DNA of 41,039 nt from a virus: IMG/VR virus record IMGVR_UViG_3300026187_000001, one strand, 5' to 3'. The translations under genes were made by a program, and so were the position numbers. Positions 25,330 through 41,039 of the stretch are shown here, in pieces. How positions within the stretch are numbered: the first letter of the stretch is position 1; each line of letters starts with the position of its first letter. Under the pieces are notes generated by a model. The model was not told the origin of the DNA. It saw only the letters and a program-made list of their open reading frames with translations, and made no database searches.

Positions 25330-25531
25330 CGTACTGCTCCTTTAGGTTGAACATGAAAGCATTGATGACACCGTGAAACATCTTGTTCTGCTTATGCGAA
25401 TCCTTGATCTTCAACTGTACTATCTCTAGCTTCTCACGTGCTTCTCTTACATTAAGTTTCTTTGTTATCACTCTGAAACTATTGTCTTCTAGTTCAGCGA
25501 TGATTACGTATGCGTCTGGTTTGTTATCCAT
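25319..25531 (-). CDS. Hypothetical early protein (70 aa)
   Basis: On the same strand and tightly packed. No motif recognised. Confidence 0.45.
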   Translation of the reverse strand: MDNKPDAYVIIAELEDNSFRVITKKLNVREAREKLEIVQLKIKDSHKQNKMFHGVINAFMFNLKEQYVDT

Positions 25532-26672: not shown

Positions 26673-27089
26673 TTATCCATTGTGTACTGTGTCTGGATTT
26701 CCTTTAACAGTGATCCAATACATGTTTAAATCTGGTCGGTATGTCCAAGCATCATGTTTCATTGCTTCATCTTTAGAAACATCTTTTAAAGAGCCTACAC
26801 TTTCCCTTGTCTGATCGGAATAAACCAGTTCAGCATATTGTTTATTGCACTCTGATACCCTAAGTATACTTTCCTGATTTTCAACGAACCCCTTGCCTAT
26901 AACGTGTTCTTTGAAATCATCCCATAACATCATATAGGACGGCTCAATTTCACCTTTATACGATCCGATACAGTGTACCATGTTACCTTTCATTTTTTGC
27001 ATGGCTCTTGCGGTATCTATATGACGCAAAAATTTAGCTTGTGTGTGTGTGTCGGTTACATTGTCTATTGAGAATATAACGTATTTCAT
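26673..27089 (-). CDS. Hypothetical early protein (138 aa)
   Basis: Clean ORF with RBS aggaaagaaaaATG. No motif recognised. Confidence 0.5.
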   Translation of the reverse strand: MKYVIFSIDNVTDTHTQAKFLRHIDTARAMQKMKGNMVHCIGSYKGEIEPSYMMLWDDFKEHVIGKGFVENQESILRVSECNKQYAELVYSDQTRESVGSLKDVSKDEAMKHDAWTYRPDLNMYWITVKGNPDTVHNG

Positions 27090-27155: not shown

Positions 27156-27281
27156 TCAATAGTTAATTTGTTTTTCTAGTTCTTCAAGTTGTTTTCTTAT
27201 TTGTTTGTGCTTTTCTGCAATCTTTTTGTTATTCTCTTTTATTGTCTTTAAAAGATATTCAAGTTCTTGATCAGTTGTCAT
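27156..27281 (-). CDS. Small coiled-coil early protein (41 aa from MTTDQELEYLL); the track version extends to 27413
   Basis: The C-terminal 41 aa form a charged heptad helix. The 44-aa N-terminal extension in the track is Ile/Tyr/Asn-rich, lacks an RBS and looks non-coding. Confidence 0.4.
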   Translation of the reverse strand: MTTDQELEYLLKTIKENNKKIAEKHKQIRKQLEELEKQINY

Positions 27282-27423
27282 TGTTTCTTTCTTTCGTGTT
27301 GTTGTTTCGATATATTCAGTATTGCAAATTAAATCACAGTTGTAAACGACTACAAAGTATATCCAGTCTATACTAAAGGATAGGTCCAATTGTATATTAT
27401 AATGTATACCCATTGAATCGGTT

Positions 27424-27451
27424 CAGATAGGTAAGAACTATTGACGTATTA
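27424..27451 (+). repeat. Control-region repeat R1: CAGATAGGTAAG-aacta-TTGACGTATTA
   Basis: Read directly. It is one of three 28-bp copies. Confidence 0.85.
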
Positions 27452-27467
27452 ATCCAATCAGATCAAT

Positions 27468-27495
27468 CAGATAGGTAAGGTTTGTTGACCTTTAT
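27468..27495 (+). repeat. Control-region repeat R2: CAGATAGGTAAG-gtttg-TTGACCTTTAT
   Basis: Read directly. It lies 44 bp after R1. Confidence 0.85.
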
Positions 27496-27540
27496 TGTAT
27501 TTCCCTTACAAAGTGTTACATTATAACAGTATCGATCCTA

Positions 27541-27552
27541 TTTGTGATCACG
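27541..27552. repeat. Palindrome box 1: TTTGTGATCACG (core GTGATCAC, contains GATC)
   Basis: Read directly. Confidence 0.85.
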
Positions 27553-27556
27553 TTTA

Positions 27557-27584
27557 CAGATAGGTCAGCATTCTTGACGTATTA
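27557..27584 (+). repeat. Control-region repeat R3: CAGATAGGTCAG-cattc-TTGACGTATTA
   Basis: Read directly. It lies 89 bp after R2 and abuts palindrome box 2. Confidence 0.85.
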
Positions 27585-27596
27585 TTTGTGATCACA
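27585..27596. repeat. Palindrome box 2: TTTGTGATCACA (10-bp perfect palindrome TGTGATCACA)
   Basis: Read directly. It lies 44 bp after box 1. Confidence 0.85.
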
Positions 27597-27615
27597 GATT
27601 GCCGGGGGGTACTTT

Positions 27616-27627
27616 TTTGTGATCACA
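27616..27627. repeat. Palindrome box 3: TTTGTGATCACA
   Basis: Read directly. It lies 31 bp after box 2. Confidence 0.85.
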
Positions 27628-27816
27628 CGCAGGGGTGAGGCGGGGGTCTAGGGGGTTCCTCTGTATTGTACATTACGACATAAAATTATCTCAGAAAAAC
27701 ATTAGACCCTGCAGAGGGGGTAGGTACTTGTAACAACAGAACCTGCACTGTACGGTCCTCTCCGTGGCTCTCAGAGGTATTTTACATACAGGGGTGCGGT
27801 GTACACTTGTAGTATC

Positions 27817-27910
27817 CTTACTTTAAGTAATAGTGTTTAAAGTATTATAATATACTTATAACACAAGTACTTGTAGTAATAATTACTTAAAGTAATATAG
27901 GGTATCATAA
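27817..27910. repeat. Copy B of the roughly 90-bp imperfect direct repeat (partner 25064..25152)
   Basis: It has the same conserved blocks as copy A. On the minus strand it contains TGTTATAAGTATAT. Confidence 0.8.
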
Positions 27911-27961
27911 AAAACATCTGTTGTAAAGTAAATTAATTTTACACTTTATGTCGTTTTAGTG

Positions 27962-28003
27962 TTGACAAACCTATTGTTTCCGTGTTAATATATAAGTATA
28001 GGG
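27962..28003 (+). promoter_or_regulatory. Late-arm sigma70-type promoter: TTGACA-N18-TAATAT followed by ATAAGTATAGGGGG
   Basis: The -35 is 27962..27967 and the -10 is 27986..27991. It ends about 10 nt before the first plus-strand gene (ATG 28014). Confidence 0.7.
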
Positions 28004-28013
28004 GGACTAAACC

Positions 28014-28556
28014 ATGTCTATGTATAACCTACAACAGCTTAAAACAGAGAACGGAATCATAAGGACTAAGAGTTTGTTTTACGAACTGTCCTATGACTCA
28101 CCAGAGTATGCGTTGTTTACGCTGAAAGAAGAAGACATCGTGATGCCTGATGGCAGACCTGCTACGGCTCTGGGTAAGTTGTACATAGCATTTGCAACAA
28201 TGGACCCGACAGAGTACCAGTTCGCTACTGCAGTCTTTGGTAGTTGGGAAGTCTGGGAAAAGATGCAGACGACTGTGCCACTCAAGAAACCTATTGAGAA
28301 GTGGCGTAGAGAGGCAGAAGTAAAACGTAAATCACTTGCCTTTGAGTCTGTTATAAAAGAAATACAAGAGGGTGGGCGTAGTAGTTTCACTGCAGCTAAG
28401 TTCTTAATCAACGAAGAATGGAAAGCTAAAGAAGACGGACGTGCTGCTCGTAAAGAAAAGAATCTAAAAGACAAGACTACATCTGAAGAAGCTTTCGAAA
28501 GAGCAGGTGTAAACGAAGACTTGAAGCGATTAAAAGATCAGGGTTTAATAAACTGA
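28014..28556 (+). CDS. Hypothetical protein, first gene of the plus arm (180 aa); possibly a DNA-binding protein or small terminase subunit
   Basis: Clean ORF. The basic, coiled C-terminal half (KWRREAEVKRK...) and the promoter-proximal position are the only support for the functional guess. Confidence 0.5.
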   Translation: MSMYNLQQLKTENGIIRTKSLFYELSYDSPEYALFTLKEEDIVMPDGRPATALGKLYIAFATMDPTEYQFATAVFGSWEVWEKMQTTVPLKKPIEKWRREAEVKRKSLAFESVIKEIQEGGRSSFTAAKFLINEEWKAKEDGRAARKEKNLKDKTTSEEAFERAGVNEDLKRLKDQGLIN

Positions 28557-40853: not shown

Positions 40854-41039
40854 CACATTTGTTAAAGGTTTGATTACTGAGGCAGGTGAACTTACTTTCC
40901 CACCAGATGCATCAGTAGATGAACTAAACTGTGACCTTCGTCGTGACGGTTCTCGCCGTAGACGTAAAGGTGCAGCTAAAGAAACTAACTTCGAACTGTC
41001 TAGTTTTACTGTAGCAGATGATGCTATTACTACAACAGG
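40822..41039 (+). CDS. Tail tubular protein B (nozzle), 5' portion; continues at base 128 of the window through the circular junction
   Basis: ATG 40822 (MPQSLTQRVVNTF...) is in frame with 129..2078 once the 127-bp duplicate is collapsed: (129+90)/3 is an integer, and there is no stop in between. Confidence 0.75.
   Translation, partial: MPQSLTQRVVNTFVKGLITEAGELTFPPDASVDELNCDLRRDGSRRRRKGAAKETNFELSSFTVADDAITTT
40913..41039. repeat. 127-bp exact duplicate of the window start (1..127)
   Basis: Base-for-base identity, read directly. Confidence 0.95.

Follow-up and report, generated by a model that had tools for sequence, protein, structure and literature searches.

The left ends of bacteriophages T7 and T3 combine a direct terminal repeat (DTR) of about 160-175 bp with short repeats at its inner edge, host-type early promoters, and an anti-restriction gene, which in T3 is an S-adenosylmethionine (SAM) lyase encoded among the first genes. 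Cobaviruses carry DTRs of 159-173 bp, mapped by PacBio sequencing in ICBM1-3 and situated in a region free of open reading frames (ORFs) between gene modules, and are thought to package their DNA from concatemers in the T7 manner (PMC6775973); they lack an RNA polymerase of their own (PMC6918029), and neither paper mentions promoters or regulatory repeats. Here we consider the end region of one such genome, IMG/VR record IMGVR_UViG_3300026187_000001, whose 41,039 nucleotides are referred to below as the window, and in particular an ordered array of 28-bp repeats and short palindromes in its divergent control region. The window is a complete genome of a cobavirus (Zobellviridae), a marine T7-like podovirus, and the evidence set out below indicates that at its genome end the phage probably recruits a host DNA-binding protein, with no replication origin at that place.

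In its layout, the locus is like the T7 and T3 left ends: the large terminase and the gene set are of the T7 type, short repeats adjoin a predicted terminal repeat and are followed by candidate early promoters for the host polymerase, a SAM lyase is encoded among the first genes, and runs of G and of C lie inside the repeat, as they do in T7. The array itself differs, since T7 has about a dozen direct CCTAAAG heptamers whereas the window has two or three 23-bp dyad sites at fixed spacing, and these sites match a motif of host chromosomes, of which we know no equivalent for T7. Unlike T7, this phage has no RNA polymerase (PMC6918029), and its late genes run inwards from the other end under a consensus sigma-70 promoter. 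Lambda cosB also presents three repeated sites at fixed distances from the place where ends are cut (the protein sites being putative in the window), and there a host DNA-binding protein, IHF at site I1, forms part of the end-processing complex, a parallel that we propose may extend to this phage. However, the R sites of cosB bind the phage small terminase and its IHF site is asymmetric, whereas the window sites are palindromes and no IHF consensus is present; lambda ends are moreover cohesive (cosN), as opposed to the direct repeats of the present locus. Clustered dyad-symmetric sites in a divergent control region are also found in lambda OR1-3 and the P22 operators, and LexA boxes on some temperate phages are a precedent for a phage that reads a host regulator. 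In lambda and P22 the operators are adjacent, whereas those of the window are 44 and 89 bp apart with no fixed promoter overlap, one of them is within the predicted terminal repeat, and the phage appears to be strictly lytic, with no integrase or repressor among the ORFs scanned. With P1 pac the locus shares TGATCA-containing elements near where ends form (three within about 85 bp), but pac is built of TGATCA/G hexamer clusters on either side of a cut site, with Dam-controlled cutting, and serves headful packaging, whereas the window has 8-16-bp GTGATCAC palindromes that are absent in several relatives, predicted terminal repeats, and no methyltransferase domain in the ORFs scanned. To our knowledge, the host family, Rhodobacteraceae, has no Dam.

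The array occupies part of a divergent region of about 600-730 bp between early genes, which run leftwards on the minus strand from 27413, and structural late genes, which run rightwards on the plus strand from 28014. An earlier note on this DNA had described an ordered set of putative protein sites here, and its description of the repeats holds almost throughout. The three 28-mers are located at 27424-27451 (R1), 27468-27495 (R2), and 27557-27584 (R3), with start-to-start spacings of 44 and 89 bp. What had been missed is their symmetry, as each is an imperfect 23-bp inverted repeat, ATAGGTMAG-N5-YTKACSTAT, giving the putative sites O1 (ATAGGTAAG-AACTA-TTGACGTAT, 27427-27449), O2 (ATAGGTAAG-GTTTG-TTGACCTTT, 27471-27493), and O3 (ATAGGTCAG-CATTC-TTGACGTAT, 27560-27582). 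The degenerate 23-mer has 7 matches in 41 kb against 0.45 expected, a number reached in 0 of 100 shuffles, and the matches are the three sites, on both strands, plus one weak match with 3 mismatches at 25489. An extra isolated half-site, ATAGGTCCA, is present at 27380-27388, near the predicted early transcription start. The three TTTGTGATCAC boxes start, as noted, at 27541, 27585, and 27616 (spacing 44 and 31 bp), with R3 between the first two: B1 (TTTGTGATCACG, 27541-27552) contains the palindrome GTGATCAC at 27544-27551, B2 (TTTGTGATCACA, 27585-27596) is part of a 16-bp near-palindrome detected by the inverted-repeat calls (ATTTGTGATCACAGAT, 27584-27599), and B3 (TTTGTGATCACA) spans 27616-27627. 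Neither the 28-mers nor the TTTGTGATCAC boxes occur anywhere else in the 41-kb genome, and GTGATCAC is found three times genome-wide, always in the array, where base composition would by our own estimate give about 0.6. The five GATC sites that had been counted, between 27461 and 27621, are the genome maximum for a 217-bp interval (reached in 6 of 4083 sliding intervals, all over the array region), and three of them are the centers of GTGATCAC palindromes; over the whole genome, GATC occurs at compositional expectation (3.6 per kb observed against 3.7 expected). The estimated GC content of about 42% (0.42 computed) and the GTGTACAC palindrome at 27799-27806 were likewise correct, whereas the tandem AATCAGAT(C/A) pair exists but is located at 27456-27473 and not at 27454-27471; it consists of AATCAGATC and AATCAGATA on the plus strand, in the O1-O2 spacer, the second copy overlapping O2.

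Several simpler explanations of the repeats were considered and set aside. The TTGAC halves do not serve as -35 elements, as there is no -10 at 16-18 nt, in line with what had been noted, the promoter scan calls no plus-strand promoter from them, and relatives replace TTGACG by CTTACC yet keep the dyad. A sigma-54 site, checked by eye, has its spacing off by one, and Rfam returned no RNA element in the region at E ≤ 1. CtrA, LexA, IHF, DnaA, and parS patterns gave no match in this region of the window (27200-28100 for DnaA).

The position of the array relative to the genome end was obtained by rebuilding the concatemer junctions of ICBM1 (repeat of 172 bp) and ICBM2 (159 bp) from their annotated ends and aligning them to the window. 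The inner DTR edge (ICBM2 ATTTCCCCTA...) aligns to 27499 and the outer edge (...TGTACAAT, followed by GCGAC) to the step between 27674 and 27675, which predicts a DTR of about 176 bp ±3 at 27499-27674; this stretch is present once in the window because the assembly is circular. R1 and R2 are located just outside the predicted inner edge, on the early-gene side, with R2 5-6 nt from it, and R3 and all GTGATCAC boxes are inside the repeat. From the same alignment, the virion left end is predicted at about 27674, so that, reading leftwards, O3 would be followed by O2, O1, and the early genes, and the array would be found at roughly nt 90-250 from the leading end of the injected linear genome. Lying inside the predicted repeat, O3 would be present at both ends of the virion DNA.

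This arrangement is strongly conserved. Of 24 IMG/VR loci encoding the first late protein that were fetched, 19 had enough upstream sequence to be aligned, and 5 further contigs were added from a motif scan; O1 and O2 are kept in all of these relatives. Conservation of the repeat spacing, which the earlier note had proposed as a check, is complete for O1 and O2, which start 44 bp apart in every relative, and the block from O1 through O2 to TATTTCCC at the repeat edge shows zero indels in any relative, the O2-to-TATTTCCC distance being constant. This is also in agreement with an independent scan for two left halves separated by gaps of 25-45 nt, which returned cobavirus contigs only at the 44-bp spacing. 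Over the 19 aligned relatives, positions 1-6, 8, 13, 16, 18, 19, 22, and 23 of O1 are invariant, and the pattern ATTAAT..CAAT..ATCAAT of the O1-O2 spacer is kept. O3 is present in 18 of the 19 as ATAGGTCAG-TAYTC-TTGACGTAT, with all 23 positions conserved including the center and the asymmetry, and in 10 of these 18 it is inverted as a 28-bp cassette between the GTGATCAC palindromes, so on sequence grounds O3 looks functional in either orientation. Its G-G mismatch (columns 4 and 20) remains uncompensated in 18 of 19 sequences, which argues for a constraint on sequence read by a protein and rules out a hairpin or cruciform as the conserved entity. In Roseobacter phage CRP-4, two of the three sites are near-perfect palindromes, and in a distant cobavirus lineage (45% protein identity) a single perfect site occupies the corresponding inner edge. 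In another clade of relatives (L309), two copies of ATAGGTCCAGAT are present just inside the terminal repeat.

The GTGATCAC boxes, on the other hand, are a second, lineage-specific class of putative sites internal to the repeat. B1 is found in most relatives but is absent in L006-L008, L026, and CRP-4, and at the third box position the window, L005, and L016 have a box, whereas the others mostly have GTTC-N7-GTTC. These direct repeats, which align to about 27600-27630, occur in 15 of the 19 relatives, with one to three copies per genome on one strand, and they total 23 copies in the predicted DTRs of the relatives (L006-L022) against 0.4 expected by shuffling. GTTC-N7-GTTC is, as we take it, the LexA (SOS-box) consensus of Alphaproteobacteria, and the presence of such LexA-type-looking boxes suggests that sites for host factors are a recurring theme of this repeat.

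A chromosomal counterpart of the 23-bp site points toward the host as the source of its binder. The symmetric form ATAGGTMAG-N5-CTKACCTAT was scanned for exact matches in one genome per bacterial species (596 Gb), giving at least 120 matches where about 35 would be expected by our own estimate from uniform base frequencies. Among the matches listed, 59 of the 80 with a named organism are from Alphaproteobacteria, including Rhizobium and relatives, Sphingomonas, Hyphomicrobiales, Rhodospirillales, Rhodobacteraceae, and Phaeobacter, and the non-alphaproteobacterial ones look like chance or terminators, for example in Anoxybacillus, where a T-run comes after the sites. A genome has only a few such sites, and those of Alphaproteobacteria occupy orthologous positions from a few to about 130 nt upstream of genes; the loci among the matches listed include yitT (35), a pyridoxal phosphate aminotransferase (19), gltD/gltB (9), LysE-type exporters (8), guaA (4), and others. 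At LysE, the site begins 11 nt past a TTGACA and stops 13 nt short of the ATG, a location resembling that of a repressor, and the center of the chromosomal site is also symmetric (GCA-T-TGC), giving an 11-1-11 site. The motif ATAGGTCAG-N5-CTGACCTAT therefore has the properties of a host element, being enriched, in the right taxa, and in promoter regions. As regards the phage, the left halves of the window sites are identical to the chromosomal motif, O3 shares 19 of 23 positions with its commonest form, and the left half and center of O3 (ATAGGTCAGCATTC) are identical to Ciceribacter and Rhizobium sites, whereas the right halves (TTGACGTAT, TTGACCTTT) differ at 2-3 positions; O1 and O2 of CRP-4 and the sites of several phage contigs match the chromosomal motif exactly. 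At three Rhodobacteraceae loci (L239, 1280-1360, between mnmE and mnmG; L191, 3635-3700; L219, 3290-3365), two sites alternate with parS-like palindromes (GTTTCACGTGAAAC or TGTTTCGCGCGCGAAACA). This alternation mirrors the box-O3-box order of the phage, with a different second palindrome. Rfam found nothing at the chromosomal sites.

The same type of site recurs in other viral contigs. Exact or near-exact sites accompany the terminal or packaging regions of at least four further lineages of phages. For example, a podovirus-like contig (L112) carries at its start (40-290) about ten tandem copies of ATA(C/T)GTCAG-TAGTC-CTTACCTAT spaced by 23-30 bp, followed by a G-rich tract and by TTGACA..TATAAT promoters with ACTTTAAGTAT-like repeats; its terminase (Terminase_6N) and portal are of other types, and only lysis-region proteins are common to it and the window. 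In a second lineage (L280, 3740-3870; also L282, L291, L284, and L294), three sites spaced by 45 and 31 bp are flanked by a G-rich tract and by a perfect DnaA box (TTATCCACA), in what is possibly an origin or terminal region of that lineage. Elsewhere, a single site is situated between runs of G and C (L276 type), two sites are directly upstream of a head-tail connector gene and the terminase (L057 type), or, in genomes of 57-60% GC (L300/L277 type), the interval separating a primase-like gene from the large terminase holds a site and, after it, TATTYCCC and a TGTTA..TAACA palindrome, which also come after the site in the window. That the sites turn up time and again at terminal-like or packaging-module boundaries suggests a function connected with genome ends. 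A comparison by eye of site position with contig ends in IMG/VR showed no clear pattern. No small protein common to the window and the other site-bearing contigs was found, and a host binder is therefore the simplest explanation of the distribution. Within the phage, none of the 40 window ORFs scanned with Pfam and PHROG has a helix-turn-helix (HTH) or regulator domain, and the annotated HTH protein of ICBM2 (gp5) has no homologue in the window. Judged from these sequence comparisons, the candidate binder most likely comes from the alphaproteobacterial host and not from the phage.

We therefore propose, with a probability that we would put at roughly 0.45, that the 28-mers bind a dimeric host protein at the leading end of the genome, and that the resulting complex gates the passage from the terminal repeat to the early genes and marks the boundary between them. 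Loading of the host protein onto O3, O2, and O1 would accompany the entry of the left end into the cell and would recur on concatemer junctions, with two dimers at the inner edge of the repeat and one inside it. Acting as an operator or a roadblock, such a complex could gate transcription between the repeat and the early genes, and early expression would then depend on the state of the host regulator; the complex could also mark the inner repeat boundary during concatemer processing. A candidate extended -10 promoter called by the promoter scan inside the DTR (ATCACA-17-TATAAT with TG, minus strand, 27548 to 27520) would place O2 and O1 downstream as roadblocks. Two further candidates face the early genes on the minus strand, namely a perfect, conserved TATAAT hexamer at 27396-27401, a candidate early -10 with no recognizable -35, and TTTACA-17-AATACT at 27346 to 27318, which precedes the first small early ORF by about 30 nt and is conserved in the closest relatives only.

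Several points weigh against this proposal. The promoter assignments are consensus matches, and the distance from O1 to the TATAAT hexamer is about 23 nt in most relatives, 35 nt in L005 and L007, and about 10 nt in the L309 clade, a variability that speaks against a classical activator or operator geometry there. At host promoters, the sites overlap the core promoter as a repressor site would, and the motive of a lytic phage for carrying a repressor site at its early end is not obvious. The right half-sites of the phages are mostly TTGACGTAT (C-G half-site ATACGTCAA) and not the CTKACCTAT that was scanned, and as the genome scan was built on the symmetric consensus, it shows enrichment of that motif and not equivalence to the phage sites. 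Many small early ORFs are unannotated, and any of them could encode an unrecognized DNA-binding protein. Clustering of the genes flanking the chromosomal sites gave target genes only and no regulator gene beside them, and literature searches with the motif as text found only primers. The target genes presumably suggest an amino-acid or nitrogen regulator, which we regard as a lead only, and Lrp-, LysR-, Rrf2-, and WYL/DriD-type proteins are, in our estimation, guesses that each fit part of the picture.

The surrounding genome is in keeping with a T7-like phage. The first and last 127 bases of the window are identical (1-127 and 40913-41039), which indicates a circularly closed assembly and a complete genome with a unit length of 40,912 bp. 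The nearest cultured relative is CRP-4 (Zobellviridae, Cobavirinae, Veravirus), with 78% DNA identity over part of the region and 83% protein identity in the first late gene, and the nearest cultured relatives infect Rhodobacteraceae. The genome encodes a primase-helicase, DNA polymerase A, endonuclease I, ribonucleotide reductase, ThyX, tail proteins, and a large terminase (PHROG, 1e-89), which also gives a weak match, under the Pfam cutoff, to the T7 RNaseH-like terminase domain. The early block begins with small ORFs, the SAM lyase (26673-27089, minus strand; PF23780, 37 bits against a cutoff of 28), and DUF7178, and more than 10 small early ORFs have no recognizable domain; the SAM lyase is an anti-restriction protein like that of T3 gene 0.3, and with its gene in one of the first early positions this side can be recognized as the leading, early end. 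Nothing comparable to the SAM lyase is annotated at that position in CRP-4 or ICBM2. The first late gene (28014-28556, plus strand; 180 aa, phrog_8035) has homologues in about 100 phage records, among them podoviruses of Vibrio, Pseudomonas, and Klebsiella, where it usually adjoins a genome end, and its AlphaFold model (predicted local distance difference test score of 79) and sequence gave no match in the PDB. The late structural operon is preceded by a consensus sigma-70 promoter, TTGACA-18-TAATAT (27962-27991, plus strand), kept in all relatives.

The repeat and its late-gene flank hold further conserved elements. Just inside the inner edge of the DTR, the palindrome TGTTACATTATAACA (27514-27528) reads as an extended -10 (TGnTATAAT-like) on either strand, and relatives keep a palindrome at this position with a differing sequence. 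Directly outside the outer edge, on the late-gene side, the block ACGACATAAAATTATCTCAGAAAAAC (27675-27700) is conserved, and it is almost invariant even in distant relatives. Together with a TACAAT inside the DTR, this block forms a promoter-like match on the minus strand (27694 to 27665) that spans the outer edge and would be intact only across a concatemer junction. Between the DTR and the late promoter (27805-27900), ACTTGTAGTA and TTACTTTAAGTAAT repeats and palindromes are conserved with variable copy number and recall the CCTAAAG / CTTAAAG repeats beside the T7 terminal repeat; GCACTGTACGGTCC (27744-27757) resembles the first bases of the T7 genome (CAGTGTACGGACC), and TGTAC-containing motifs at 27668 (the repeat edge), 27748, and 27800 are all kept in nearer relatives.

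Of the functions that the earlier note had put forward, a packaging site and an early/late switch come closest, because the array straddles the predicted inner DTR boundary, and hence the concatemer junction, and lies upstream of the early genes. O1 and O2, with O3 and the GTGATCAC boxes, could form a packaging or terminus-processing signal on which terminase assembles to cut the inner boundary and duplicate the repeat, bound by an unrecognized small terminase subunit or by a host accessory protein, as IHF is at lambda cosB; in a variant, the bound protein would pause polymerases crossing the concatemer junction, and in T7 a pause site for its RNA polymerase lies just past the repeat. As a self-contained account we consider this tentative and on balance unlikely, although it overlaps with host-protein gating and both may hold. 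The geometry speaks for it, as O2 is fixed at 6 nt from the repeat boundary and O1 at 44 bp from O2 in every relative, whereas the distance to the early promoter drifts. So do the proximity of the same site type to terminase and head modules or G-rich, terminal-like tracts in unrelated phages, the short-repeat array that T7 has in the equivalent place, directly after its 160-bp repeat, the T7-style packaging thought to operate in cobaviruses (PMC6775973), and the promoter-like match that would exist only on junctions. The site-bearing phages, however, have unrelated terminases (T7-like in the window, Terminase_6N in L112), which makes a shared phage recognition protein unlikely and leaves only the version with a host accessory protein; the search for a small terminase found none, the conserved first late protein (180 aa) having no fold match, and the chromosomal occurrences of the motif are unrelated to packaging. 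In addition, T7 packaging starts at the right end, and the T7 recognition sequence, in the right-end unique region, sits across the repeat from the side equivalent to O1 and O2. The sites might instead be operators of a small, unannotated dimeric regulator of the phage, acting as an early/late switch, with a coincidental or convergent likeness to the chromosomal motif. Three clustered dyad sites upstream of early genes are a classical operator layout, the domainless early ORFs leave room for such a protein, and the conserved half-site variant TTGACGTAT is not seen among the chromosomal matches listed. We nevertheless find this reading doubtful, given the absence of an HTH domain in any ORF scanned and of an ICBM2 HTH homologue, the absence of a protein common to the different site-bearing lineages, and the lack of a fixed overlap between the sites and the best promoter candidates; the alphaproteobacterial enrichment at housekeeping promoters would require a host binder in any case.

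A replication origin, in which the 28-mers would act as iterons and the palindromes would be auxiliary sites, was the lead option of the earlier note and now appears very improbable. No other kilobase of the genome is as AT-rich as the one that holds the repeats (GC 0.34), the cumulative GC skew reaches its minimum there, and an unrelated phage group has three such sites beside the perfect DnaA box mentioned above; yet the skew minimum falls where the coding strand changes and where the genome ends are, and so carries no information on an origin. The region itself has no DnaA box, CtrA box, or IHF site, no initiator or Rep domain was found in the ORFs scanned, where the replication genes are a T7-type primase-helicase and DNA polymerase A, and the sites are dyad-symmetric, matching both strands, with an O3 that flips among relatives, unlike directional iterons. 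A role for Dam or SeqA, also raised there, is not supported either, as GATC is not enriched genome-wide, the local GATCs center GTGATCAC palindromes, and the boxes are missing in several relatives; methylation in Rhodobacteraceae is by CcrM (GANTC) rather than Dam.

Returning to a host protein bound at the genome end, a bolder extension is that the operator of one conserved host regulator came to be placed, in independent events, at the genome ends of several unrelated phage lineages of marine Rhodobacterales, the abundant cobavirus clade of this phage among them, so that the nutritional state of the host decides on transcription or processing of the entering end. The chromosomal targets of the regulator would then be amino-acid and nitrogen genes (gltBD, aminotransferases, LysE exporters, and guaA). 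We regard this extension as speculative and unlikely. We have found no earlier description of the element, of the way it is rigidly fixed to the repeat edge, of the match between it and a widespread chromosomal palindrome of Alphaproteobacteria, or of its recurrence in unrelated roseophages. From a practical point of view, the analysis provides a precise, conserved map of cis-elements for these phages, with three predicted host-type dimer sites at the repeat edge, palindromes internal to the repeat, and LexA-like boxes in relatives. Should a host regulator prove to bind the sites, infection timing in slow-growing ocean bacteria would be linked to host physiology, an uncharacterized alphaproteobacterial operator would gain a function, and there would be an explanation for the presence of the same 23-mer at module boundaries in several unrelated roseophages. 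A role in end processing would instead make the sites the first packaging signals to be defined in this phage family, and if the nutritional reading is true, lytic ocean phages would carry a built-in switch to wait for a fed host.

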